Shown: positions 295-41,119 of the stretch, piece after piece
How positions within the stretch are numbered: position 1 is the first letter of the stretch
How the letters are laid out: every line of letters starts with the position of its first letter
NCBI GenBank assembly: GCA_031972475.1
Contig: DALYEP010000001.1
Span: forward strand, 325,147-389,146
Source: Candidatus Babeliales bacterium
Lineage (GTDB): Bacteria; Babelota; Babeliae; Babelales; CAIQNR01
DNA length: 64,000 bases
Reading direction: 5' to 3'
Position numbers and translations under genes: made by a program
Notes under the pieces: generated by a model
The model's database searches: none
What the model was told of the DNA's origin: nothing
What the model saw: only the letters and a program-made list of their open reading frames with translations

Positions 295-2016
295 ATGAGC
301 GAAGACAAAAAAAATAATACTTCTTCATACACTTTAGAACAGCTACGTCACTCTGCTGCTCATCTTTTAGCGCAGGCTGTACTTGAATTGTTCCCTACAA
401 CACAATTAACAATTGGTCCAGCAACTACGGATGGTTTTTTTTATGATCTTCTTCCTACAGAAAATTTCAAACTTGAAGATTTGCCTTTAATAGAAAAAAA
501 AATGCATGAAATTGCAAAGCGAAACTTAAAAATCACTCATTTTCAAATGGCCAAAGATGAAGCTCTTCAACTTTTTAAAAACAATAAATTTAAACTCGAA
601 TTAATTAACAATATTCCTGATGAAACAGTCGGCATTGCACAACAAGGAGATTTTATTGACCTTTGTAAAGGAGGCCATGTTGATTCAACAAAACAAATCA
701 AATTTTTTAAACTGCATGCAATTTCTGGATCTTATTGGCGCGCAGATAAAAGTAACACGGCACTTCAGCGCATTCATGGAACTGCTTTTTTTACTAAAGA
801 AGACCTTGCTCTTTATGAGGAAAAAAAAGAAGCCGCAATTTTATATGATCATCGCAAACTAGGAAAGCAACTTGATTACTTTTCATTTCATGATGAAGGA
901 GTAGGCTTTCCATTCTTTCATCATAAAGGCAAAATTGTTTTAAATGCCCTACGTCATTTTATGAGATCAATTCTACAAGAAGCTCATTATTGTGAAATAG
1001 AAACTCCAACTATGCTTTCTGATGAACTATGGCGCTGCTCGGGGCATTATGAATTTTATAGAAACAATATGTATTTTTCTAATATTGATGAAAAAAATTA
1101 TGCTGTAAAACCTATGAACTGCCCAGGTTCAATTTTAATTTACAAAGAAAGACCACGTTCTTACAGAGAGCTTCCTTTAAGATTAATGGAATTTGGAAAA
1201 GTTCACAGACATGAACTTTCTGGAGTACTTCATGGACTTTTTAGAGTCAGAGCTTTTACCATTGACGACACTCATATCTATTGCACGCTCGAACAAATTG
1301 AAGAAGAAATTGTAAAAAACATCAGTATAATTAAAAAAGTTATGAATAAATGCGGCATTGATACTTTACAAATATTTCTTTCAACACGACCTGAAAAAGC
1401 TATGGGATCTGATGAGATGTGGGAAGCTGCTATTAATGGACTAAAAAACGCATTAAATAAAGCAGATTTATCTTACACTATAGCTGAAGGTGATGGAGCC
1501 TTTTATGGCCCTAAAATTGAATTTAAATTTACTGACTCAATGGATAGAGTATGGACATGTGGAACTATTCAACTAGACTTTTTCCAACCAGAAAATTTTA
1601 ATTTAAATTATGTATCATCTGATGGATCTCTACAACGTCCCGTCATTTTACATCAAGCCATTTACGGATCTCTTGAAAGATTTTTCGCCGTACTTCTTGA
1701 ACATTATAAAGGTCATTTACCTTTCTGGCTTTCGCCAATCCAAGCACGTATTATTCCTGTTTCTACTGAACAAAAAGATGCTGCTCAAGAATTATATGAA
1801 TCTTTAAAAACCCATCTAAGAGTTGAATTTATAGAATCTACCGATTCTCTTTCTTCTCAAATTAAAGATGCTCAAATCAATAAAATCCCTTGGATGCTTA
1901 TTGTTGGTAAAAAAGAAGTAGAAAACAAAACTATTACAATACGTTATGCAAATGGAAAACAAGAATTTGGAATAACAAAAGAAGATCTGATTAAACGCAT
2001 TAGAGAAATAAATTAA
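295..2016 (+). CDS. thrS: threonyl-tRNA synthetase (no N-terminal TGS domain)
   Basis: HSAAHLLAQAV and DLCKGGHV editing motifs, KPMNCP, HRHELSG.LHGLFRVR, GAFYGPKIE, HQAIYGSLERF; AAAGGA RBS. Confidence 0.98.
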   Translation: MSEDKKNNTSSYTLEQLRHSAAHLLAQAVLELFPTTQLTIGPATTDGFFYDLLPTENFKLEDLPLIEKKMHEIAKRNLKITHFQMAKDEALQLFKNNKFKLELINNIPDETVGIAQQGDFIDLCKGGHVDSTKQIKFFKLHAISGSYWRADKSNTALQRIHGTAFFTKEDLALYEEKKEAAILYDHRKLGKQLDYFSFHDEGVGFPFFHHKGKIVLNALRHFMRSILQEAHYCEIETPTMLSDELWRCSGHYEFYRNNMYFSNIDEKNYAVKPMNCPGSILIYKERPRSYRELPLRLMEFGKVHRHELSGVLHGLFRVRAFTIDDTHIYCTLEQIEEEIVKNISIIKKVMNKCGIDTLQIFLSTRPEKAMGSDEMWEAAINGLKNALNKADLSYTIAEGDGAFYGPKIEFKFTDSMDRVWTCGTIQLDFFQPENFNLNYVSSDGSLQRPVILHQAIYGSLERFFAVLLEHYKGHLPFWLSPIQARIIPVSTEQKDAAQELYESLKTHLRVEFIESTDSLSSQIKDAQINKIPWMLIVGKKEVENKTITIRYANGKQEFGITKEDLIKRIREIN

Positions 2017-2071
2017 ATATTTTTTTGTTTTTTATTTTTGCATTTTTTTTGTATGAAATGTCGAAATATTA

Positions 2072-2101
2072 TTGACTTTGTTTTTATCAAACTTGTACTA
2101 T
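2072..2101 (+). promoter_or_regulatory. sigma70-type promoter for histone-like gene
   Basis: TTGACT-18 nt-TACTAT upstream of the 2167 ATG. Confidence 0.55.
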
Positions 2102-2166
2102 TAATCTTGTAACCATCAGTGAAGTACAGAAGGAAATAAAAAATCACTCCAAAAAAGGGAGAGAAC

Positions 2167-2469
2167 ATGACAACAAAGAAAACTGCAAAACGCAAAGCTG
2201 CTCCAAAACGCAAAGTTGCGAAAAAAGCTGTAAAAAGAACAGCTAAAAAAAGAGTAGCAAAACGTAAGGCTGCTCCAAAACGCAGAGTTGCGAAAAAAGC
2301 TGTAAAAAGAACAGCTAAAAAAAGAGTAGCAAAACGTAAGGCTGCTCCAAAACGCAAAGCTGCTGCAAAGCGTAAAGCTGCTCCAAAGCGTAAAGCTGCT
2401 CCAAAACGCAGAGTTGCGAAAAAAGCTGTAAAAGCTGCACATACAGCACATACAGAATCAGCTAAATAA
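2167..2469 (+). CDS. histone H1-like / Hc2-like basic nucleoid protein
   Basis: 100 aa, almost entirely K/R/A/P/V/T repeats (KRKAAP, AKKAVKRTAKKRV); strong AAGGGAG RBS, own promoter and terminator. Confidence 0.9.
   Translation: MTTKKTAKRKAAPKRKVAKKAVKRTAKKRVAKRKAAPKRRVAKKAVKRTAKKRVAKRKAAPKRKAAAKRKAAPKRKAAPKRRVAKKAVKAAHTAHTESAK
2186..2356 (+). repeat. 72-bp tandem coding repeat (about 2.4 copies) followed by 18-bp KRKAAP repeats
   Basis: gcaaaacg(c/t)aa(a/g)gctgctccaaaacgca(a/g)agttgcgaaaaaagctgtaaaaagaacagctaaaaaaagagta recurs with period 72. Confidence 0.9.
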
Positions 2470-2470
2470 G

Positions 2471-2505
2471 AAAAAAATCACCCGCTTCCTGCGGGTGATT
2501 TTTTT
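2471..2505. terminator. bidirectional intrinsic terminator
   Basis: aaaaaaatcacccgc-ttcct-gcgggtgattttttt between convergent genes. Confidence 0.9.
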
Positions 2506-2593
2506 ACATCTATTATTTCTTTTATTTTAAAATTTAAAAAAACTAAAAGAATAAATATCTTAATTAAAACATTCATTTTCATTACAAAAAAAA

Positions 2594-3313
2594 CTACTCT
2601 CTATTTTTATAACCTATATAAGACATTAAAATTCCTGCTGCTACTGATGCATTATAAGAAACTTCAGAACTTTTTTGAGGTAAAGTAATAATGGTTCCAG
2701 CGCGTAAAGTTGCATTAGAAACACCATTTCCTTCACTTCCTATTACTAAACAAAGAGGTTTTTTATATTCTATTGTAAAAGCATTGGCCTCTTTACTTAA
2801 TGCAGCAACATAAAGATTATAACCTGCCTTTTTAAGCTCAATCAATACGCTTTCTATTGAAGAAGCTTCATAAATTTCCATTCGTTCTGCAAGGCCTGCT
2901 GATGCTTTAAGAGCTGTAGCTGTAATTGTAGCTGATTTTTTCTTACATAAAATAACCCCATCAACACCTGTGCAATATGCTGAACGAATAATTGCACCAA
3001 GGTTTCTAACATCTTGAATACCATCAAGAAGTAATAAAAAAGGGCTTGTAGAACTATCAAAAAATTTTTTTCTAAAAGTAAAAGGTTGAACCCTTGCACC
3101 TATACCCTGATGATCAACGGTTCCTAGCGTATGAGTTAATTTTTCACGCTTCATCTTATGAATAATAATAGGATTTTTTGGCAAAAAAGATTGGATTTTT
3201 TTAAATGTTGCATGATCAGATTCCAAAATAAAAAGTTCAAAAACTTTTCTTCTTTTTTGCTCTAAAACCTCAAAAACTGCGTGAGTACCGTAAATTAACT
3301 CTGTTTCAGCCAT
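2594..3313 (-). CDS. rlmB: TrmH/SpoU family 23S rRNA 2'-O-methyltransferase RlmB
   Basis: IYGTHAV, HQGI, LDGIQDVRNLGAIIRSA, LVIGSEGNG, SYNASVAAGI; start reassigned to ATG 3313. Confidence 0.92.
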   Translation of the reverse strand: MAETELIYGTHAVFEVLEQKRRKVFELFILESDHATFKKIQSFLPKNPIIIHKMKREKLTHTLGTVDHQGIGARVQPFTFRKKFFDSSTSPFLLLLDGIQDVRNLGAIIRSAYCTGVDGVILCKKKSATITATALKASAGLAERMEIYEASSIESVLIELKKAGYNLYVAALSKEANAFTIEYKKPLCLVIGSEGNGVSNATLRAGTIITLPQKSSEVSYNASVAAGILMSYIGYKNRE

Positions 3314-3423
3314 TTTTTTTATATTTTTAATCATTTTATAATCTTTCACTAGATAAACATCGAATCTATAGCATATCACAATTCTTTACTATGGGCTCTC
3401 TCCCAAAACCAATTGCTTTCTGT

Positions 3424-3452
3424 TTGACATTCCTATTGGCCTATAGCAAAAT
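3424..3452 (+). promoter_or_regulatory. sigma70-type promoter
   Basis: TTGACA-17 nt-CAAAAT upstream of the 3503 ATG. Confidence 0.55.
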
Positions 3453-3502
3453 GACTAAATTAAAAAAGTGTATAAAAATAATTTAAATAAAAGGATTTTT
3501 TT

Positions 3503-4027
3503 ATGAAGAATAATTTGCAAATCGGCCTACTCTTAAGCTTATTTACTCTATTTTCCAATCAAACACTTATTTCTCAAGAAAGTATTTTAGAAGAAAAACA
3601 AATCGATTCTATTGTAGATAATGACCAAGAAAATAATGATGATTTTATTGATAATGATGATCAAAATTATACAACAGAAAAAGAATCAATTGGTCATTTT
3701 ATTAGTTTTTATATCGACCCTTCAATCATAAAAGATGACAATATTTCGATTGTAACAGAAAAAAATCAGTTTTATTTCAAAATAAAATTAGAAAATAATA
3801 ATGTTATTATTTTTGGAAAAATAGAAGAAGAATCTCTAACGCTTTATCATATAACTATCCCAAACAACAGCTCACTTGAAGAAATGCTTTCAGCATTTGA
3901 TACCGCAGAAAAAGCATTCTTACCTCTTGATGATGAAATAGATTGTGAAAAAATAGAAGCTAGCATAAATAAAGAAACTGGAGAGCTTATACTCTTTTTA
4001 CCATTTTTAGATCGCGATAATAATTAA
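3503..4027 (+). CDS. signal-peptide-bearing acidic protein with Hsp20/alpha-crystallin-like C-terminus
   Basis: N-terminal MKNNLQIGLLLSLFTLFS; C-terminal LPLDDEIDCEKIEASINKETGELILFLP resembles the sHSP consensus LP..VD.EKI.A...NG.L.I.LP. Confidence 0.55.
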   Translation: MKNNLQIGLLLSLFTLFSNQTLISQESILEEKQIDSIVDNDQENNDDFIDNDDQNYTTEKESIGHFISFYIDPSIIKDDNISIVTEKNQFYFKIKLENNNVIIFGKIEEESLTLYHITIPNNSSLEEMLSAFDTAEKAFLPLDDEIDCEKIEASINKETGELILFLPFLDRDNN

Positions 4028-4048
4028 ATATAAAATCATTTCTAAATC

Positions 4049-4077
4049 AAACGGGGTGCTCACGAGTACCCCGTTTT
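4049..4077 (+). terminator. intrinsic terminator
   Basis: aaacggggtgct-cacg-agtaccccgtttt. Confidence 0.85.
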
Positions 4078-4146
4078 CATTGAATTCAATATAAAATTGC
4101 TTATACTTGTATTTTCATATTTTACTAAAAAGTATCAAGGATTAAA

Positions 4147-4860
4147 ATGTATATACTAGAAGGCAATATTGGCGCTGGAAAATCAACTCTCCTCAATCTT
4201 ATAAAAACATACATGCCTTATATTGAAGTTATACAAGAACCTGTTACTACATGGTCAGATACATCTACGGAACATTCACTATTAGCTCAATTTTGCGCAG
4301 ATATGCCTCGATGGTCATACTCTATGGAAACATACACTATGTTTTGCCGCATACAAGAACATTTACGAATTCAAAAAAATCAAAATCCTTTTAAATTAGT
4401 TGAGCGCTCTCTTTATTCTGGTAACTATTGCTTTGCAAAAAACGGCTATCTTCAGTCATTTATGAGCGATATAGAATGGAATATATATACTGAATGGTTT
4501 AATTTTTTAGTTTTACAAAAATGCCAACCACCTCTTGGTTTTATCTATCTTCAAACAGACCCAGAAATTTGTTTTGAACGAACCGCTAAAAGAAATAGAC
4601 TTGGAGAAGAACATATTTCAATTGAATATTTTAAACAAATTCATAATCGCCATGAACAATTTTTAATTCATAAACAAGGTGTACTTAATCAACTAAAAGA
4701 CGTTCCCGTTCTTGTTATTGATGGATCAATTGATTTTGAATCTAACAAACAACATTTAAAAGATTGCCTTGATCAAATTGATGAATTTCTATTTTTCACA
4801 GGAGATTCTAAAGGCCTTAAACGAAAACATGATGGTATTAATCATACAAAATGTTGTTAA
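4147..4860 (+). CDS. deoxynucleoside kinase (dCK/dGK/TK2 family)
   Basis: ILEGNIGAGKST P-loop, EPV..W, ERS, YLQTDPEICFERTAKRNR..EE lid. Confidence 0.92.
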   Translation: MYILEGNIGAGKSTLLNLIKTYMPYIEVIQEPVTTWSDTSTEHSLLAQFCADMPRWSYSMETYTMFCRIQEHLRIQKNQNPFKLVERSLYSGNYCFAKNGYLQSFMSDIEWNIYTEWFNFLVLQKCQPPLGFIYLQTDPEICFERTAKRNRLGEEHISIEYFKQIHNRHEQFLIHKQGVLNQLKDVPVLVIDGSIDFESNKQHLKDCLDQIDEFLFFTGDSKGLKRKHDGINHTKCC

Positions 4861-4876
4861 TATAAAATAAAAAAGT

Positions 4877-6061
4877 TTAACCAATCACATATACTCTATG
4901 TTTTCCTACCTTTATAGTCATACCTGATCTCCATGTAACTTCATATTTAAAGTCAGAAATTATGTGAGAATCTAGCGATACAGAACCATTTTCGATAAGA
5001 CGTTTTGCTTCTGATGAACTGGAAATTGCACCCAATATTTTAAGAAAATCAACAATCCACAAAGTTTCAGATGTTCCAATAGGAAGATGAATAGTTTGAG
5101 CTTTTGAAAGATCCTTTTTTTGAAAAACATCTTCAAATGTTTTTTTTGCATCTTCTGCCTCTTTAGAAGACCAAAATTCAGCAACAATACCTTGCGCCAT
5201 ATCTTTTTTAAGAGCCATAGGATGAATTATAGAATTATATACACCTTCTTTTAATTCTTGAATTTTAGCATCTGAATAGCCAAGAAGTAACTTATAATAA
5301 CGCCACATTAAAGCATCTGATATTGACATTAATTTACCAAATGCTTGCTCTGCAGTTTCTGCCAAACCAACATAATTACCTAAAGATTTTGACATCTTTT
5401 CTACACCATCAAGTCCCTCAAGAAGAGGCATTGTCATAATAACTTGAGCATCTTGTTTATATTGTTCTTGCAAAAATCTACCCATCAACAAATTAAATGT
5501 TTGATCAGTTCCTCCAAGCTCAACATCTGCTTTTAAAGCAACAGAATCATACCCCTGCATAATTGGATACATTAATTCATGAAACCCAATAGGAACATTA
5601 AGAGAAAGCCTTTTTGCAAAATCTTCTCGTTCAATAATTCGCGCTAAAGTTACTTGAGCACCTAGTTTTAAAACATCACTAAAAGTGAGCTTATCTAACC
5701 ATTCAGAATTATAACGAATAATAACTTTATCTTTATCAAGAATACGAGTTACTTGTTGAAAATAAGTTTGTGTATTTTTTTCAATATCTTCTTGGCTAAG
5801 AGGAGGCCGTGTTTTTGATTTTCCAGAAGGATCTCCTATCCGAGCTGTACAATCACCTATAAGAAAAACTATAACATGTCCCGCATTTTGAAAATCACGC
5901 ATCTTACGAAGTACAACAGCATGACCTAAATGCAAATCAGGAGCTGTAGGATCCATGCCTAATTTTATAATTAATTTTTTATCCGATGCTAATTTCTTTT
6001 GAAGTCCTCCTTCAGGAAGACAAGAAACAGAGCCATTTAATAATTTTTCTAAAGTTGTCAT
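4877..6061 (-). CDS. tyrS: tyrosyl-tRNA synthetase
   Basis: GMDPTAPDLHLGH, IGDPSGK, YPIMQGYD, GGTDQTFN, KMSKS, C-terminal S4 domain; ATG at 6061 overlaps upstream TAA. Confidence 0.97.
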   Translation of the reverse strand: MTTLEKLLNGSVSCLPEGGLQKKLASDKKLIIKLGMDPTAPDLHLGHAVVLRKMRDFQNAGHVIVFLIGDCTARIGDPSGKSKTRPPLSQEDIEKNTQTYFQQVTRILDKDKVIIRYNSEWLDKLTFSDVLKLGAQVTLARIIEREDFAKRLSLNVPIGFHELMYPIMQGYDSVALKADVELGGTDQTFNLLMGRFLQEQYKQDAQVIMTMPLLEGLDGVEKMSKSLGNYVGLAETAEQAFGKLMSISDALMWRYYKLLLGYSDAKIQELKEGVYNSIIHPMALKKDMAQGIVAEFWSSKEAEDAKKTFEDVFQKKDLSKAQTIHLPIGTSETLWIVDFLKILGAISSSSEAKRLIENGSVSLDSHIISDFKYEVTWRSGMTIKVGKHRVYVIG

Positions 6062-12914: not shown

Positions 12915-14552
12915 TTAATTACCTTTTAGATTTTCAATCTGCTCTTGATAATTTGCTTTAATACATTCGAGTTGTTCAACTTTTTCTTGATTACGCTCAA
13001 GCTTAGCTTTTTCTATTTCTAGTTCAACCCAATTAAAATTAACTTTTAATTTATCTAAATTATCATATTGCAATACTGCAAATAAATTAGATAACAAGCT
13101 TCGTTCACTTTTATCTTGATTTCCTTTTAAATCATTAAACGATCTCTTTTTAAGCTCCTCAGCATTAACATTAGAAGGATATTGACACTGAAATTGATCC
13201 GAATAAACTCTTGCATTAATATACGCTTGCTCTTCTAGCATAGAATTAAGATGAAGTAACTTTGTATAAAGATTATTTTTAAGTTTATCATTTTTATCAA
13301 TATAAGAAGTAATATTATGATAAAATTCATTAGAATACATTCTTGGATTAATATACGCTTGGTCTTCTAGTATAGAATTAAGATGAAGTAATTTTATATA
13401 AAGATTATTTTTAAGTTTATTATTTAATAATTGCATTTCAATATGTAATTTTTTTTGAATTGCTAAAAGCATAGTCATCTTATGATCATTAACTGCTTGA
13501 AATTCATTTTTAGTATCATTATCAGAACGCAAATTTTTTATATACGCTTCATGTTCTTGTTGATCTTGGAGCAATTCTTGCTTAGTTGTTTTGCTAAATT
13601 TAAATTGATTTAAATCATCTTTTGTAAATTCTTTTTGTTTTAAAATCATATCATTATAAGAAAAATTAGCTTTAAACTGATCTTCTTGCTTTTGTGCTTC
13701 TTTAGCAAATTCTTCAACTTGTTTTTTATTTAAATAACCTTTACTTGAAGTATAATTATCATGATATTGTTCAGCTAGTTTATTAATAGCTTCAGCAGAA
13801 CCCATATACTCTAAAGCCCCTAGATCAGCACTATATTCTATATAGTTTGAAAATGATTTATATTGTATTAATTTATTATTATCAAAAGAAAAATCATTAT
13901 AATAAAGATTATCATAAAATTCTCCATATATATCTTCGTCATTTGCGTGAACACGAGTTGCAATATGATAAAATCCATGATCTACTGGGAGAGCACGACG
14001 TATAATATGATAAAGTTCATGATCTACGTGATCACCATGTATAATATGATGAAGTTCATGTAATGCTACTTTACAATTGTAAATAAAAGATAATTCTTTG
14101 AGCCTAGATTCTTTAAGCCATACTGTATTAAAATATGCAGAACCTAGTACGTAGTCTCTAGTTCTCTCAACATATAATTTAATTTTTTCCATATTATATA
14201 ATTGACTTTTCCCCATAAAAGAAAGAGATCTCTTCATCAATAATTGGAAAAATGCAGAAGGACAAACGGCAACATTTTTTTCGATATGAATTTTTTCATC
14301 ATTTTTATATGTTTCTTTAGTCGAATCAAAACGAGAAATCACTGATTTTACCCGTCTCTTATCATTTAGAGTCTTTTCTTTTTCTGTGGCAAAATTAAAT
14401 TTAAAATATTTAATAGGATCTTCTGGAATACTTCTTAAATAAGAGAAATTAGAAGATTTACTATTTTTAGAACATTCTAAAAATGGACTTTTTATAGGAT
14501 CTTTATAATCACTACAAATAGAAAATAATAAAAATAGTTTATTAAATATCAT
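12915..14552 (-). CDS. secreted HExxH (M48-like) metallopeptidase-domain protein with helical C-terminal repeat
   Basis: Signal-like MIFNKLFLLFSIC; ALHELHHIIHGDH and downstream EYSADLGA; GAGG RBS. Confidence 0.6.
   Translation of the reverse strand: MIFNKLFLLFSICSDYKDPIKSPFLECSKNSKSSNFSYLRSIPEDPIKYFKFNFATEKEKTLNDKRRVKSVISRFDSTKETYKNDEKIHIEKNVAVCPSAFFQLLMKRSLSFMGKSQLYNMEKIKLYVERTRDYVLGSAYFNTVWLKESRLKELSFIYNCKVALHELHHIIHGDHVDHELYHIIRRALPVDHGFYHIATRVHANDEDIYGEFYDNLYYNDFSFDNNKLIQYKSFSNYIEYSADLGALEYMGSAEAINKLAEQYHDNYTSSKGYLNKKQVEEFAKEAQKQEDQFKANFSYNDMILKQKEFTKDDLNQFKFSKTTKQELLQDQQEHEAYIKNLRSDNDTKNEFQAVNDHKMTMLLAIQKKLHIEMQLLNNKLKNNLYIKLLHLNSILEDQAYINPRMYSNEFYHNITSYIDKNDKLKNNLYTKLLHLNSMLEEQAYINARVYSDQFQCQYPSNVNAEELKKRSFNDLKGNQDKSERSLLSNLFAVLQYDNLDKLKVNFNWVELEIEKAKLERNQEKVEQLECIKANYQEQIENLKGN
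13215..13425 (-). repeat. imperfect internal direct repeat (about 79-bp units, period 132 bp)
   Basis: 13215-13293 vs 13347-13425, encoding N.KLKNNLY.KLLHLNS.LE.QAYIN twice. Confidence 0.9.
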
Positions 14553-18180: not shown

Positions 18181-18312
18181 TTCTTTTATAAAAAATTAAT
18201 ATTAAAAATAATCATTCTAAAAATTTTCATTTAAACCACACTCAAAAAGAGACAGGTTTACAGATCTTTACTTTTAAGGCAGACTACCGATCTTAATAGT
18301 AAGGAGAAAATT

Positions 18313-19662
18313 ATGAAAAAAATCAGTATTATATTACTTGCATTTTTATTTTTAAATTTAAATGCAAAAAGAGCATATGGAATGGTTGCAATCGGAACAG
18401 GTTGGACCAATGATTACCAAACAGTTATTTTAGATTATCTTGCAAGAAAATCAGATTTTTTAGTCCAAACAAAAGCTCCTTACACAAATCCTCACAAAGC
18501 AACCGTTGATGGAGTTTGTTATGATTTTTATCATATTCCTGTTGGAATTTTACAATCTCCTGCAATTAAAGTTTACATTGCTCCAGGAACACTTATCGAC
18601 CTTGATTTACTTATGAAAGAACTCGAAGATTTAGAAAAACTTGGAATTGACACAAAAAAAAGAATTCGAATATCTGCAAGTGCACAAATTTTAATGCCAT
18701 ATCAAAAAAGCATTGGACAATACAGTCGCAAGAAAAAAACATGCAAAATTGGATCCGGTGTACGAGTTGGTGTTGGGGCTGCAGGATCTGATAAATGCAT
18801 GGGAGTTGCCTTTAGAATAGCCGATTTAATGAGCTCAGGCTACAAAGATCTTCTTAAAGAAAATGTTCAAAGAGGAAATGATATCATAATTAAACTTTAT
18901 GAAAATAAGCCAATAGATTTTAAAGAAATATATAATACATTTAGTAAATATAGAAAAGCTCTCAAACCTTACGTTCGAGATGGGATTGAACTTAAATTCA
19001 ATCAAATGCTAAGCCATGGGAAAATAGGTCTATTTGATAGTCCTTATGGAACATATCTTGATAGCACTCATGGAACATGCTCTTATACTTCAGGTGTAAG
19101 CGCTCTTGCTTCTAGTATTTGTAGTTCTGCAGGAGTTGGATTTAAACGAATTAAAACAGTTATAGCAATCGTAGATTCTTATAGTATTTACCCAGGAAAT
19201 GAAAAAATCATCACAGCAATAGAAGATCCAGAAATTGCAAATAACGTAAAGAAAAAATTTGGCAAAATATATAATCCAAAACATCAATATGGATGGATTG
19301 ACCTTGTTATGATACGTCAAGCCGTTATGATAAATGGAGCTGACTGCATAGCATTTAATGGACTTCATCTTCTTGACGATCTTGATGAAATAAAAATGTG
19401 TATTGATTATGATCTTGATGGAAGACACCTTGATTATCCAGCACCAGCTCTTGAAGATCAAAAAAGAGTTGTTCCTCACTATATTGTTTTTCCTGGATGG
19501 AAAAAATCAACTCGAAATGCACGAACTTTTAGTGAACTACCGCAAGAAGCTCGCATTTTTTTAAAACAACTTGAGTGTCTTGCAGGAGTTCCTATAGCAA
19601 TCGTTTCTGTTGGGTTAGAGCCTTATGAAATGGTTATTGTTCAAGAATATTGTTTTCCATAA
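18313..19662 (+). CDS. signal-peptide-bearing, catalytically degenerate adenylosuccinate synthetase (PurA) homolog
   Basis: Full-length PurA-like (IPVGIL, LMKELEDLE..GID...RIRIS, GTYLDSTHGT, YGWIDL, PGWKKST..ARTFSELPQEARIFLKQLE.LAGVPIAIVSVG) but GDEGKG replaced by TNDYQT; 18-aa signal peptide; AAGGAG RBS. Confidence 0.85.
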   Translation: MKKISIILLAFLFLNLNAKRAYGMVAIGTGWTNDYQTVILDYLARKSDFLVQTKAPYTNPHKATVDGVCYDFYHIPVGILQSPAIKVYIAPGTLIDLDLLMKELEDLEKLGIDTKKRIRISASAQILMPYQKSIGQYSRKKKTCKIGSGVRVGVGAAGSDKCMGVAFRIADLMSSGYKDLLKENVQRGNDIIIKLYENKPIDFKEIYNTFSKYRKALKPYVRDGIELKFNQMLSHGKIGLFDSPYGTYLDSTHGTCSYTSGVSALASSICSSAGVGFKRIKTVIAIVDSYSIYPGNEKIITAIEDPEIANNVKKKFGKIYNPKHQYGWIDLVMIRQAVMINGADCIAFNGLHLLDDLDEIKMCIDYDLDGRHLDYPAPALEDQKRVVPHYIVFPGWKKSTRNARTFSELPQEARIFLKQLECLAGVPIAIVSVGLEPYEMVIVQEYCFP

Positions 19663-19859: not shown

Positions 19860-20273
19860 CTATTTATTCTCTTTCTCTATAGACTTTAATTCATTAAGCA
19901 ATGAATCAAATATTTTTTGACCTTCATCTGTTTCAAAAGAATTATTAATAATTTTCTTTAAATACAATATAACAACCTCAATATCTTCTACAGATATTGA
20001 AACAATACGCATTTTATTATCTTCAAGAACAGTTTCTACTACTCCAGCCATACCATTTAAAACCTGCTTTAAAGATGCTGATGCTTCTTGAGAATTACCT
20101 TGATTCGCTTTAAGACCAACAATACCACCCAAAATATCTCTTAAAAAATAAGATACTAACTTTGCAGCATTGTTTGACTCAACTTGATGAGAGATAACAA
20201 TTTGACTTGTTAATATTTTGTTATTAACAAGAAAACACACCAACAACATTATTCTTTTGTAATATATTTTCAT
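19860..20273 (-). CDS. secreted hypothetical protein
   Basis: AAAGGA RBS, MKIYYKRIMLLVCFLV signal-like N-terminus. Confidence 0.7.
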   Translation of the reverse strand: MKIYYKRIMLLVCFLVNNKILTSQIVISHQVESNNAAKLVSYFLRDILGGIVGLKANQGNSQEASASLKQVLNGMAGVVETVLEDNKMRIVSISVEDIEVVILYLKKIINNSFETDEGQKIFDSLLNELKSIEKENK

Positions 20274-20347
20274 ACTACACATCCTTTAATATTAATAAGC
20301 GACTATCCTGCATCACTAATAATAAATATGAATATATAGTTTAATAA

Positions 20348-21685: not shown

Positions 21686-23968
21686 TTATTCAAATGATTC
21701 ACTAGTAATATCATCATTTTCATCAACATTTATTTCTTTATCAAAGAACGATTGCAATTTTTTACTTCTAGAAGGATGACGCAATTTACGCAACGCTTTA
21801 ACTTCGATTTGTCTTATGCGCTCTCTTGTAACAGAAAAATCTTTTCCAACTTCTTCTAAAGTATGCTCAGATGCAACATCAATACCAAATCGCATTTTAA
21901 GAACTTTTTCTTCTCTTGGAGCAAGTGTTTTAAGAACTTCACGAACACGCTCTTTTAAGTCAGAATTTGCTACTGTTTCTGCAGGAGAAAAATCTTTATC
22001 ATTTTCTATAAAATCTTTAATGAATGCATCTTCGCTATCACCAACTGGGGTTTCTAACGAAATCGGCTCTTTAGAAATTTTAATAATATTTTTAACTTTC
22101 TTTTCATCAAGATTTAATTCTTTAGCTAAATCTGCATAAGAAGGCTCTTGGCCATGTTGTTGAATGAAAAGACGTTTAATTTTATTAATCTTATTAAGAG
22201 TTTCAACCATATGAACAGGAACACGAATAGTTCTTGATTGATCTGCTATTGCACGCGTAATAGCCTGCCTAATCCACCATGTTGCATATGTAGAAAACTT
22301 ATAACCTCGTTCAAATTCAAATTTTTCTACAGCCTTCATAAGACCAATATTACCTTCTTGAATAAGATCCAAGAAATGAAGTCCACGATTAACATATTTT
22401 TTTGCAATATTAACCACTAAACGTAAATTTGCTTTAGCAAGCTCATCTTTTGCATGCTTATCATCTTTTTGGCTTTTAACAAGTTGTCGATAATACTTAG
22501 TAATCACATCCAACGGAAGACCAGCTTCACCCTCTGTCTTTTTAATAGACTTAGTAGCCATTCTTATTTCTATTTCTGTTTCTTCGAGCAATACTTTATT
22601 GTCAGAAGAAATTTCTTTGCCTTTTTTAATAAAATCGACAGTTTTTTGACCTTCACGAATAATTTGCTGTTTTTCTTGAATTTTTAAAAGAAGTTTTTCA
22701 ATTTTTTTACCAATTTTTCTAATAAATTTATTAGCAATTCTAATAGATTGAACAGTCTGGCTAATTGCTTCTTTATTTTCTTTAACCTTTTGTAGCATCT
22801 CTTGTTTTTTTTCTTGAGATGTCAATTGATTTCGATAAGAAGCATAAATTCTTTCTTCATTTTTAATTAAATCTTCAAGTGCTGTAATTGTTTTTAAAAA
22901 AGCATCACGCTCTTCACCAATTTTTGGCAAATTCTCTTCATCATACTCAGCAAATTGAATAACATCTTTAAGAATCATTGGATTTTTATGAAGTTTTTCT
23001 CCAATAGATAAAAACTCTTTATACACAAAAGGAAAATGAGAAATCGCCTCAATACATGAATGCTTACTTGTTGCTATTTTATCTGAAATAATTTTTTCTG
23101 TTGTCTTATTAAGAAGAGGAATTTTTCCAATATCTCTTAAATAACATTTAACACCATCAGCAATATGAGAAGCTTCTGCTCTCTCAACAACTTCTTCTTC
23201 GTCATCTTCTGAATCAGTATCTTCTTCATCACCACCATCTTCATCAACAGAAAGACTCGAAACAAATTTATCTTTCAATTCAGCATGAGAGCCAATTTCA
23301 TCTTTTGTATGATCATCAAGAGCACTATCTTGAGCAAGTAACTCTTCTTCCATAATCAATTCTATATGTTCTTTTTCAAGAACTTTCATAAACTCATTTA
23401 CTTCTTTTTCCGTCAAATGAGCTTTGTCATGAAGAATCATTATTTCTTCATAAGTCAAAATACCAGTCTCTTTACCTTTTTCTAAAATCGCATCCATCAA
23501 ATCTTTTTTAAGATCCAGTTCTTTTTTTACAGAAACTGTTGACGTTGCTGATTTCATCTTGCTTACTGCTTTTTTAGGAGATGTTGCTTTAACAGTTTTT
23601 TTAATTGGAGTTAATGGCTTTGCTTGAACAGAAGTTTTTTTAATCACTTCATCTTTACCAACAGAAATATTTCCATCTACTTGTTTTTTTGTTACACGCG
23701 ATGGCGCTTTAACAACAACTTTTGGAGTTTTAGATTTTGAAAAAATCATTTTCTTTGCAACTGCTTTTGTTGAAGAAACTTTTTTAGTTGAAGCTTTTTT
23801 TATAACTTTTTCTACTGTTTTTTTATTTTCTTTAACAGTTTTCTTTATTTTTAAAGAATTTTTTTTAGAACTAACTTTTTTAACTTGTTTTACTTTTTTT
23901 GTTGTTTTTTTAGAACTACTCTTTTTTGATATTCCCAAAATTTTATTAATTATGCTTTTAATAACCAT
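21686..23968 (-). CDS. rpoD: primary sigma factor RpoD with about 150-aa Lys-rich N-terminal extension
   Basis: [71 protein letters not shown]. Confidence 0.97.
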
Positions 23969-37459: not shown

Positions 37460-39058
37460 TTAAGCAATATCTTGATCTTGAGGTTGAGTAATATTTAAAA
37501 GATTGTAAATTTCAGAAGCTGTCATTGTTTTTTTCTCAAGAAGAGCATTGGCCAATATAGTAAGTTTATCTTTGTTTTGCATTAAAAGAATTTTAACATC
37601 TTCATAGCATTTTTTAATAATTTTTAAAACTTGATCATCTATACGTTTTGCAGTTTCTTGTGAATAAATAAAATCACCTTGCTGCTGAGAATAAACAATA
37701 GGCCCAAGAGTGTCAGACATGCCATAACAGCAGACCATATCACGAACAATATCAGTTGCTTTAGCAAAATCACTATACGCACCAGTTGTCACATTATCAA
37801 ATATAATCTCTTCCGCAACTCTACCTCCAAGTAAAGTCATTATCTTAGCAAGCATTTCTTCTTTATTTATTGAATATTTATCATCTATATAACGATGAAA
37901 TGTCACCCCCATAGCATCAGCACGAGGCACTATTGTTACTTTATGTAAAGGAATAGAATACTCTTGGTTTAAAAGAGTTACTAAAGCATGACCTGCTTCA
38001 TGAAAGGCAGTTATCTTTTTTTCTTTTTCAGACAAAACAATATTTGATTCCTTGCCTAATAACAATGTATCAATAGACTCTTCAAGATCATTCATTGTTA
38101 CATATTCATTTCCAGATCTATAAGCAGTCAATGCAGCTTCATTAATTAAATTTGCAAGTTCTGCACCAGAAAAGCCAATTGTTGCCTTTGCAATTGTTTT
38201 AAAATTAACAAGGTTATCTATTTTTACATATTTTGAATGAATCTTAAGAATCTCTTCGCGAGCTTGCATATTTGGATTTTTTACTGAAATAATTCTATCA
38301 AATCTCCCTGGACGCAATAATGCATCATCAAGCATATCCTGCCTATTGGTTGCGCCAATCAAAACTATAGGATTATCTTCTTTTGAAAATCCATCAATTT
38401 CTGCAAGCAACTTATTAAGGGCCGCTTCTCGCTCGGTATTAAAACCTATTCCACGTTTAAAACCAATAGAATCTATTTCATCTATAAAGATAATACATGC
38501 ACCATGCTTTTTTGCTAATTTTCTAGCAATTGCAAAAAGATTTTGTACGTTTTTAGCAGAATCACCAATAAACTTAGATATAAAATCAGAACCCGTTATT
38601 ACTAAAAATGGACATTTAACTTCACCTGCCAAAGCCCTTGCAAGCAACGTTTTGCCATTACCAGGAGTTCCTGTTAACAAGACCCCTTTTCTTATTTTTG
38701 CACCAATACTTCTATATTTTTTTGAATTTTTTAAATAATCAGCAATTTGACCAAGTTCTTCTTTTGCCTCTTTTGCCCCAGCTACTGAATCAAAATTTTC
38801 TACAACTTGATTAGGCATAAAAATTAAAAAATTTATCTCATTGCTATTTTTTTTTGCAAAAGCATAATAAAAAACACGCCCTAAAAGATATATCGTCGCA
38901 ACCTGAAGAACACTACCCATAACCATATCAGACACAGAAAATACTTGATCTTCTTTTTTTTGAATTTGTTCTTTTAGATCATTACTTGAATACATCAATG
39001 AAAAATCAGATAAAAGATACATCAATCCAAAAAGAAAAATTCGCTTTTTAATCTTCAC
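37460..39058 (-). CDS. FtsH paralog with reduced N-terminal region
   Basis: [56 protein letters not shown]; GTG start with AAGGA RBS. Confidence 0.92.
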   Translation of the reverse strand: MKIKKRIFLFGLMYLLSDFSLMYSSNDLKEQIQKKEDQVFSVSDMVMGSVLQVATIYLLGRVFYYAFAKKNSNEINFLIFMPNQVVENFDSVAGAKEAKEELGQIADYLKNSKKYRSIGAKIRKGVLLTGTPGNGKTLLARALAGEVKCPFLVITGSDFISKFIGDSAKNVQNLFAIARKLAKKHGACIIFIDEIDSIGFKRGIGFNTEREAALNKLLAEIDGFSKEDNPIVLIGATNRQDMLDDALLRPGRFDRIISVKNPNMQAREEILKIHSKYVKIDNLVNFKTIAKATIGFSGAELANLINEAALTAYRSGNEYVTMNDLEESIDTLLLGKESNIVLSEKEKKITAFHEAGHALVTLLNQEYSIPLHKVTIVPRADAMGVTFHRYIDDKYSINKEEMLAKIMTLLGGRVAEEIIFDNVTTGAYSDFAKATDIVRDMVCCYGMSDTLGPIVYSQQQGDFIYSQETAKRIDDQVLKIIKKCYEDVKILLMQNKDKLTILANALLEKKTMTASEIYNLLNITQPQDQDIA

Positions 39059-39190: not shown

Positions 39191-41011
39191 TTAAATAAGC
39201 TTATGGTCTTCTCTTGGAGCAATTTGTAAAAGTTCATAAATTTCACCTGCATACATTGTTTCTTTTTCAAGAAGCGCATAGGCAAGGATATCAAGCTTAT
39301 CTCTATGTGTTTCTAAAAGCTTCTTAGCATCTGCATAACATTTATTAGTAATAGCAAGAACTTCATCATCTATAAGCTTTGCCATTTCTTGAGAATAGAC
39401 AAAATCACCTTGCTGTTGAGAATAAACAACAGGACCAAGCTTATCTGACATACCATAACGACAAACCATATCCCGAACAACCTTAGTTGCCGTAGTAAAA
39501 TCGCTATATGCGCCAGTTGAAACTTTATGAAATACAATCTCTTCAGCTATACGACCTCCAAGTGCAGACTGAACCAGTGCAAGCATTTCTTCTTTAACTA
39601 TGGAATACTTTTCTCTTTCAGGCATTGAATGAGTAACACCCAGTGCACGACCTCTTGGAATAATAGTCACTTTATGTAAAGGATCCATAACTTCTGGTAA
39701 TAATAAACGAATAAGAGCATGCCCTGCTTCATGAAAAGCTGTCATTTTGCGCTCATCTTCTGAAAGAGCAATAGTTTTTAATTCTTTACCCAAAAGAACC
39801 TTATCGCGAGCCTCTTCTATATCATGCATAACCACTTCTTTTTGATTTTTTTTAGATGCAATAATAGCTGCTTCATTAATTAAATTTGCCAAATCAGCTC
39901 CAGAAAAACCTGGTGTCCCTCTTGCAACTTTCTTTAAATCTAACTCTGGATCAATCTGAATAGAATTAGCATGAACTCTTAATATTTGTTCACGACTTAC
40001 TAAATCAGGATAAGGAACCTCTATGCGCCTATCAAAACGACCTGGCCGTAACAAAGCAGTATCAAGAACATCCGGTCTGTTGGTTGCAGCAAGAACAATA
40101 ACTGGATCTTTTGACGCCTCAAAACCATCCATTTCTGTAAGCAATTGATTTAATGTTTGCTCACGTTCATCATTACCACCACCAAGACCACTACCTCTAT
40201 GACGACCAACTGCATCAATTTCATCTATAAAGATAATACAAGGAGCATTTTTACGAGCTTGAGCAAAAAGATCTCGTACACGAGATGCACCAACACCAAC
40301 AAAAACTTCTATAAAATCAGAACCACTAATACTAAAAAATGGACAATTTGCCTCTCCAGCTACAGCGCGAGCAAGTAATGTTTTCCCATTTCCAGGAGAA
40401 CCAACAAGAAGTGCTCCTCGAGTGATCTTTGCACCTAATTTTCTATACTTTTCTGGATTTCTTAAAAAATCTACAACGTCCAACAACTCTTCTTTTGCTT
40501 CTGTTGCACCAGCTACCGATGTAAACTTTTCTTTTATAGTCGATGGCAAAAACATCTTAGCGCGACTTTTTCCTATATTAAAAGGATTTGTTCCGCCACC
40601 ACCAGAACCAACACCATTTTTAGTTTGTCTAAAAACAAACCAAACAATTAAAAGACCAATTAAAAATGTAAGACCCAAAAGAATTTGCCAAACATTAATA
40701 TCTGGCTGCGGACTTACCACAGAAAATTCGACTTTATTTTTTGCAAGCTTTTCCCATATACCTTGATCAGAAGGTATAACAGTCTCAAAGCGATTGCCAT
40801 CTTTTGTAAGACCAACAATTAATTGTCCTGAAACTACAGCATTCTTAATACTGCCTTTTTCTACCATTTCTAAAAACTGAGAATACTTATATTCCTCTGT
40901 GTTTCTTTTTGGATCAACTACTTTTGTTAAAAGCCATAAAGCTCCAACTATAAGTAAAACAACAATAATAATATTTCGAGGACCGCTAGAATTGAATATA
41001 TTTTTTTTCAT
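39191..41011 (-). CDS. ftsH: ATP-dependent zinc metalloprotease FtsH
   Basis: 2 TM + periplasmic YSQFL domain, [42 protein letters not shown]. Confidence 0.97.
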
Positions 41012-41119
41012 GAAACTTCCTACACAAATGATGAAACTATGCAATCAAGAAGGATTGGCTCTCACTACCCCTATCGATCACAATTATAATAAAATATAAT
41101 ACTACTGTCGATCGTTTCA

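Follow-up and report, generated by a model that had tools for sequence, protein, structure and literature searches.

We analysed a stretch of 64,000 nucleotides from a Candidatus Babeliales bacterium (GenBank assembly GCA_031972475.1, contig DALYEP010000001.1, positions 325,147 to 389,146 of the forward strand; hereafter the window), which was drawn from a 790-kb contig and has a GC content of about 30%. Downstream of a tRNA-Arg(CCT) gene, the window encodes a 449-residue protein of the PurA (adenylosuccinate synthetase, AdSS) family. PurA is a textbook enzyme, cytoplasmic and dependent on guanosine triphosphate (GTP); the window protein starts with a predicted signal peptide and has lost the sites for GTP, inosine monophosphate (IMP) and aspartate, and its gene is under strong purifying selection. 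The features of the gene are listed below; substitutions were read from alignments to E. coli PurA, whose residue numbers are used throughout.

18185..18212, plus strand: promoter-like site TTTATA-16-AATAAT, between tRNA-Arg(CCT) and the PurA-like open reading frame (ORF); weak evidence
18301..18306, plus strand: Shine-Dalgarno sequence AAGGAG, 6 nt 5' of the ATG that starts the leader
18313..19662, plus strand: PurA-like ORF, 449 aa, stop codon included in the range
18313..18366, plus strand: predicted Sec/signal peptidase I-type signal peptide MKKISIILLAFLFLNLNA, residues 1-18, predicted cleavage after LNA
18367..19662, plus strand: mature PurA-fold domain, residues 19-449 and stop codon, full-length fold without catalytic motifs
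18406..18423, plus strand: former GTP P-loop, GDEGKG to TNDYQT (D13N, K16Q)
18475..18495, plus strand: former switch/IMP motif, GGHNAGH to APYTNPH (N38T, G40P; H41 kept)
19033..19053, plus strand: former IMP motif, FEGAQGT to FDSPYGT (Q224Y)
19258..19290, plus strand: former aspartate loop (E. coli 297-306), FGATTGRRRR to FGKIYNPKHQ(Y)
19357..19368, plus strand: former guanine-specificity motif, TKLD to NGLH

The leader is translated, since AAGGAG lies 6 nt ahead of the first ATG, and no similar ribosome-binding site precedes M24, where the next ATG in frame is found. Promoter-like sites were no more numerous in the region than in shuffled sequence. The leader has the n-h-c layout of a signal peptide, with an n-region of charge +2 (MKK) and a hydrophobic core of 13 residues; the maximum Kyte-Doolittle value over 12 residues is 2.65. 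Its hydropathy is comparable to that of TolB, an envelope protein also encoded in the window, and both a twin-arginine motif and a lipobox Cys are absent. At the predicted cleavage place (LNA/KR) A is at -1, L at -3 and KR at +1/+2; the orthologs have VNS, VEA, VDA, ANA or VNA there. In the AlphaFold2 (AF2) model, residues 2-15 form a helix that is followed by a linker of lower confidence. Residue 21 of the window protein pairs with residue 1 of E. coli PurA, so that the leader is a clean N-terminal addition, and leader character is kept across more than 20 divergent relatives. A signal peptide ahead of the PurA start had been proposed in the original prediction, a note made from the DNA letters alone, and the leader is indeed real and conserved. 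An N-terminal helix that acts as an uncleaved membrane anchor, or that was mis-read, would leave the domain on the cytoplasmic side. We consider this very unlikely. The topology of the window clade is ambiguous because KR at +1/+2 balances the MKK n-region, but in orthologs of the intermediate clades the leaders are of the classical cleavable kind, and their flanks are neutral or acidic (ANA/EQ, VDA/LQ, VNA/AP), the leader is conserved in more than 20 lineages, and the cytoplasmic enzymes of the window (threonyl-tRNA synthetase, deoxynucleoside kinase, MurE, AtpA, DnaG, MnmG and RuvX) have no such leader.

The whole PurA fold is retained, as the original prediction also held. Residues 26-437 match positions 2-412 of the 416 in Pfam profile PF00709 (E=4e-79), and sequence matches to bacterial PurA in the PDB had E values of about 1e-53 to 6e-57. 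Among these PDB sequence matches, bacterial PurA scored 184-196 bits versus 111-156 for eukaryotic AdSS, and by this measure the protein is of bacterial type. The AF2 model built from a 42-sequence alignment had a mean predicted local distance difference test (pLDDT) score of 90.3 and a predicted template modelling (pTM) score of 0.88; the pLDDT was only 69 when 9 sequences were used. Foldseek aligned the model with PurA crystal structures at template modelling (TM) scores of 0.88-0.92 and root-mean-square deviations of 2.3-3.0 Å. Both NCBIfam PurA equivalog models scored below their cut-offs (NF002223, 266 against 402 bits; TIGR00184, 251 against 395.6), and a PHROG match (phrog_1211) represents general PurA homology. 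We rejected a PurZ-like phage enzyme because the partial match to the PurZ model NF038379 scored 50.3 against a cut-off of 300 bits; on viral contigs, only leaderless canonical-type homologs of 27-32% identity were found.

All substitutions listed in the original prediction were confirmed by alignment. Besides the five motifs given above, the IMP-site residues T128/T129 are replaced by S/G or G/V (depending on the alignment), R143 by G and T239 by S. The prediction had also singled out H41 as kept; this holds for the window protein but not for the family, since its close relatives P0003 and P0004 have R at this position, and H41 is thus not a conserved feature. Judged from these replacements, adenylosuccinate synthesis by the known mechanism is not possible for the window protein.

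Selection on the gene was estimated as pairwise Nei-Gojobori ratios of nonsynonymous to synonymous substitution rates (dN/dS). Between the window and L002, whose ortholog is 95% identical, the PurA-like gene had a dN/dS of 0.056, compared with 0.063 for AtpA, 0.028 for CorC, 0.12 for RpoD and 0.22 for MurE. The ratio was 0.098 against L003 and 0.13 against L022, and 0.09-0.11 within the intermediate clade. The gene is therefore under strong purifying selection, with a constraint like that of the ATP synthase alpha subunit. Orthologs in the same genomic slot have identities of 95%, 76%, 62%, about 41% and 37%, and the order PurA-like gene, small ORF, CorC, RpoD, DnaG, Lgt, MnmG is kept in seven other related contigs (L002, L003, L022, L005, L006, L007 and L021). 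An enzyme-family homolog that lacks catalytic residues, yet is under purifying selection, is a pseudoenzyme, and this is what was found here. A purA pseudogene decaying in the course of genome reduction would have lost its catalytic motifs in the same way, and the host phylum has dispensed with purine synthesis. However, the 449-codon ORF and its orthologs (37-95% identity) are intact, the ribosome-binding site is strong and the fold confident, and the dN/dS values of 0.056-0.13 together with the synteny refute this reading, to which we assign a negligible probability. Neutral decay among orthologs, which the original prediction had named as an observation that would speak against it, was not seen.

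Searching 1.84 billion representative sequences and the related loci with a profile recovered 22 leader-bearing degenerate PurA-like proteins, which were monophyletic (100/100 bootstrap replicates in a neighbour-joining (NJ) tree). The aspartate loop and the IMP residues are absent from all 22. Proteins of the P0005, P0007 and P0008 types keep the GTP site, with (T/D)DDGKGK, GH, (S/T)(K/R)LD and SVGP. Loss of the P-loop occurred separately in the window clade, P0031/P0036, P0032 and P0033/P0034, and is partial in L005; because P-loop-retaining and P-loop-lost members are interleaved in the tree, the GTP site must have been lost more than once. P0008, whose P-loop and TKLD are intact, shares its syntenic position with the window gene, so the two forms are states of one gene. 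Within the family, the window clade has, by its motifs, the most complete loss of sites. A branch of length 0.50 leads to this dead clade in the NJ tree and is followed by tight constraint, and the replacement motifs are themselves conserved in it (GTGW.N.Y, APYT.P, F(D/N)SPY, I(Y/H)PG, FNGL). Repeated loss of the GTP site while purifying selection continued implies that the conserved function of the family needs no nucleotides.

In the dead clade, conservation of the former active-site segments (0.856) is on a par with that of the remaining protein (0.839), while in canonical PurA these segments stand out, with 0.88 versus 0.57. From canonical to dead forms, aromatic residues in these segments increase from 4 to 11 and prolines from 2 to 5, and basic residues decrease from 13 to 6. 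Canonical forms have an isoelectric point (pI) of 5.2-6.1, and degenerate forms throughout the family one of 8.0-9.2. Signature positions specific to the family numbered only 7, and no new conserved polar constellation was present among them. Taken together, site composition, pI and signatures argue against nucleotide binding and weakly against a new conserved catalytic centre; such remodelling fits a fold retained for surface or assembly. The suggestion of the original prediction that the protein might be a nucleotide binder is thus unlikely, with the phosphate- and base-binding residues replaced. A related possibility is that the aromatic-rich former site binds a new, non-nucleotide substrate and carries out a different reaction outside the cytoplasm. 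The conserved replacement motifs and the 0.50 branch followed by tight constraint, which is typical of neofunctionalisation, favour such a new enzyme, but we think it unlikely: there is no new conserved polar or catalytic set family-wide, the former site segments are not conserved above the rest, H41 is variable in the clade, and an enzyme without the P-loop would have no energy source.

The carrier of this gene is, by its sequence relationships, a member of the Dependentiae (TM6, Babeliales-like). Dependentiae are described as obligate intracellular parasites of protists and are almost uncultured. The best named MnmG relatives were Candidatus Dependentiae and Babeliales, and locus L029, from a named Dependentiae metagenome-assembled genome (MAG), has the MnmG-Lgt-DnaG-RpoD-CorC order in common with the window. 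Five related MAGs (L002, L004, L005, L007 and L018) are labelled "uncultured Pseudomonadota", "Gammaproteobacteria" or "Alteromonas naphthalenivorans". These labels look wrong, or the bins contaminated, because MnmG similarity and synteny place them with Dependentiae; a gammaproteobacterial origin, as the NCBI MAG titles would have it, is contradicted by the MnmG matches and by the synteny with L029. The more distant Dependentiae loci L028 and L029 have no PurA-like gene after CorC, so only a sub-lineage carries it at this locus. It has been reported that TM6/Dependentiae are without nucleoside biosynthesis and depend on nucleotide transporters (PMC4776705), and that 44% of the coding sequences of Chromulinavorax carry signal peptides (PMC6561590). 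The window also encodes a deoxynucleoside kinase (PF01712; 4147-4860, plus strand), which fits nucleoside salvage without de novo synthesis.

Canonical PurAs with leaders were found as well. The best canonical BLAST matches of every family member were the leader-bearing canonical PurAs P0314, P0312, P0307 and P0317, which scored about 60 bits above E. coli PurA; P0314 is annotated as "Candidatus Babeliales bacterium". Among the 40 relatives closest to the PurA of locus L008, about 20 have leaders; the others, of Chlamydiota type, start at the canonical N-terminus. In L008 itself (817-5963; MAG "bacterium isolate CSMAG_2274"), fumC, purA, an inosine triphosphatase (ITPase, HAM1-like) gene and purB are co-directional, all four products have hydrophobic leaders, and the PurA keeps every catalytic motif; the row looks like an exported arm for the resynthesis of adenosine monophosphate (AMP) in the purine nucleotide cycle. 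In L026 (1557-11335; GCA_029262595.1, GC 44%), leaders are found on phosphoribosyl pyrophosphate (PRPP) synthetase, GuaA, GuaB and PurA, and none on PurC-E, PurB and PurM. Similarly, a leader-bearing canonical PurA (P0307) is encoded at L025:10001-11386 among genes for Legionella_OMP, CBU_0592-domain, ankyrin, intimin-like and autotransporter proteins, a context which places leader-bearing, predicted exported PurA also in a Legionellales/Coxiellales-like lineage. Literature searches turned up no account of an exported or dead PurA, and purine enzymes with signal peptides in intracellular bacteria apparently form a wider, undescribed pattern. On these similarities, the likely order of events was leader first, then loss of sites.

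Leader-bearing canonical PurAs exist in Babeliales (P0314). Dead paralogs often regulate live ones, and the window protein might be such a "prozyme", heterodimerising with a catalytically active, exported PurA or PurB that the bacterium itself encodes at another place in its genome. This we consider rather improbable: no canonical PurA or PurB is encoded within the 64-kb window, and the 120 best-ranking relatives of the L008 PurA included no large contig of the window lineage.

We give even chances to the reading that the window protein is a Sec-exported, non-catalytic PurA-fold protein with a binding or scaffold role, domesticated from an exported purine-interconversion enzyme. It builds on what was observed here, i.e. 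the leader and the fold, the site loss under selection, the conserved synteny, the series of evolutionary states and the leader-bearing canonical relatives; from these we infer that the protein is actually exported and cleaved, as well as its compartment, its dimeric state and its role. The ancestors would have been catalytically intact PurAs that already had a signal peptide; in the periplasm or farther out, they presumably used IMP, GTP and aspartate taken from the host, and their genes sometimes lay next to those of exported PurB, fumarase, ITPase, GuaA and GuaB. The copy that adjoins corC-rpoD in one sub-lineage is without IMP and aspartate sites in all members. The GTP site would then have been lost independently in several branches, most completely in the window clade, where the GTP, IMP and aspartate pockets were rebuilt with aromatic and proline residues on a fold that is probably still dimeric. 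The retained function would be non-catalytic, since the fold is under strong purifying selection despite the lost sites; most likely, it is binding or scaffolding in the envelope, the periplasm or at the cell surface, exerted through the protein surface and oligomeric state and not through a nucleotide pocket. The core claim of the original prediction, an exported and dead PurA kept for another purpose, is supported by the lost sites, the conserved leader, the constraint and the synteny. Its interpretation appears right in outline (exported, dead, repurposed) and is in this sense partly supported, the specific mechanisms that it offered being unproven.

Several observations weigh against this reading. 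The deep nodes of the PurA NJ tree are without resolution, and descent from an exported active PurA therefore rests on the ranking of BLAST and HMM similarities. The nominal sister of the family, with 66% support only, is a leaderless degenerate protein from the representative library, P0124 (D13S, Q224H, no aspartate loop; TKLD and GKGK kept), according to which a cytoplasmic lineage of degenerate PurA-like proteins may also exist. K19-R20, which directly follow the predicted cleavage site, are unusual in a Sec substrate and could signal an uncleaved anchor. Besides, the neighbourhood supplies no operon-level clue to function. SPFH/NfeD genes lie upstream of the PurA-like gene in 6 relatives, but this adjacency is broken in the window, L002 and L022, so an operon with SPFH/NfeD is not obligatory. 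The small ORF downstream is part of the CorC array, is present in Dependentiae that have no PurA-like gene and therefore predates it; homology of this small secreted ORF is traceable from L028 to L021.

The original prediction had further proposed a poison subunit of host AdSS dimers. In such a host-directed role, the protein would reach the host cytosol and heterodimerise with host AdSS; alternatively, it might be a decoy for the purine regulation of the host. The two subunits of the obligate PurA dimer share their active sites. Because these sites borrow R143 from the partner, for which the window protein has G, a mixed dimer would be crippled; R143G and the intact fold on which all sites are lost favour the model, and PDB entry 1cg3 is an R143L mutant of PurA. 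Large secretomes have been described for Dependentiae, and intermediate family members that keep the GTP site imply a compartment containing GTP. We nevertheless hold this role to be unlikely. The sequence is of bacterial type (184-196 versus 111-156 bits to eukaryotic AdSS), its dN/dS of 0.056 and its position among core genes are unlike those of an arms-race effector (compare 0.66 for the neighbouring 545-aa ORF described below), and its nearest relatives are leader-bearing, predicted exported bacterial PurAs. The model would require a secretion route past Sec, and neither the basic pI nor the remodelled pockets are demanded by it.

Other candidates and neighbours at the locus were as follows. 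The convergent small ORF at 19860-20282 was rejected as a functional partner, its equivalent following CorC where the PurA-like gene is absent. A defence-system PurA-like protein (cf. PMC12522546) was rejected too; PADLOC gave no match for the window protein, P0124, P0008 or P0007, and the neighbours are core genes. An orphan ORF of 545 aa (12915-14552, minus strand), in which a segment of about 45 aa (KLKNNLY[IT]KLLHLNS...) is duplicated and an HELHH motif occurs, had no Pfam or PHROG match and evolves fast, with a dN/dS of 0.66 against L002 and 62% amino acid identity compared with 81-97% for its neighbours; it is a candidate effector. At 37460-39058 (minus strand), a second FtsH-like protein of 532 aa (AAA and peptidase M41 domains) adjoins the canonical ftsH (39191-41044); it has only a signal-peptide-like N-terminus and is without the FtsH_ext domain. 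Secreted M41 peptidases have been noted for Chromulinavorax (PMC6561590). RpoD (21686-23968, minus strand) has a Lys/Ser/Thr-rich N-terminal extension of about 150 aa, also present in the relatives L003 and L006. Finally, a 916-aa ORF (30073-32823, plus strand) occupies the most AT-rich stretch (GC 23%), has a hydrophobic N-terminal region and gave only a weak partial match to sigma-54-type AAA proteins.

The leader-bearing enzymes also allow a wider reading, which we put forward tentatively and regard as doubtful in its full form. Unrelated intracellular bacteria would export a purine-interconversion set (PurA, PurB, fumarase, ITPase, GuaA, GuaB and PRPP synthetase) which, in the periplasm or the host, reworks host IMP, GTP and AMP pools before nucleotide import. 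The lineages concerned would be Dependentiae/Babeliales, a Legionellales-like lineage and one whose PurA is closest to the Chlamydiota type, and the window protein would be a domesticated, non-catalytic descendant of the exported PurA that has turned essential in a new envelope- or host-facing role. Intact exported forms would imply purine chemistry dependent on nucleoside triphosphates outside the bacterium's own cytoplasm, on host metabolites and, if true, this would add a new level to the parasitism of nucleotides and energy. The family forms an unusually complete series from the exported enzyme through GTP-site-only forms to fully dead forms, and as the last two share one syntenic locus, the birth of a pseudoenzyme could be tested directly. 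In addition, a conserved, abundant-looking and predicted exported protein may offer a concrete handle on the envelope and host biology of Dependentiae.

What is new here, judged by sequence, is a PurA-family pseudoenzyme with a signal peptide. Compared with PurA/AdSS (EC 6.3.4.4; PF00709; TIGR00184/NF002223), the window protein has the same size and full-length fold (TM about 0.9) and common core residues (GW.D, PGW, LP..A, SVG), and on this basis it clearly derives from bacterial PurA; it differs in its signal peptide, its basic pI, its replaced substrate motifs and its scores below the equivalog cut-offs. The leader-bearing canonical PurAs (P0314, L008/P0306, P0307, P0338) resemble it in the combination of leader and PurA fold and come from bacteria of intracellular lifestyle, but they keep GDEGKGK, GGNNAGHT, IGTTGRGIGP, FEGAQG, TTGRKRR and TKLD and have an acidic pI. 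PurZ, PurZ0 and DgsS of the phage 2-aminoadenine pathway are likewise diverged PurA-family members recruited to a new role; unlike the window protein, they are active, keep their catalytic residues, and are shorter and cytoplasmic, and its TM to their structures was only 0.65-0.72. Binding-type pseudoenzymes are known elsewhere, among them the secreted ROP pseudokinases of Toxoplasma and the S-adenosylmethionine decarboxylase (AdoMetDC) prozyme of trypanosomatids. Their folds are unrelated to that of the window protein but, like it, they have kept their fold under selection after catalytic loss, and some of them are exported to act outside the cell.

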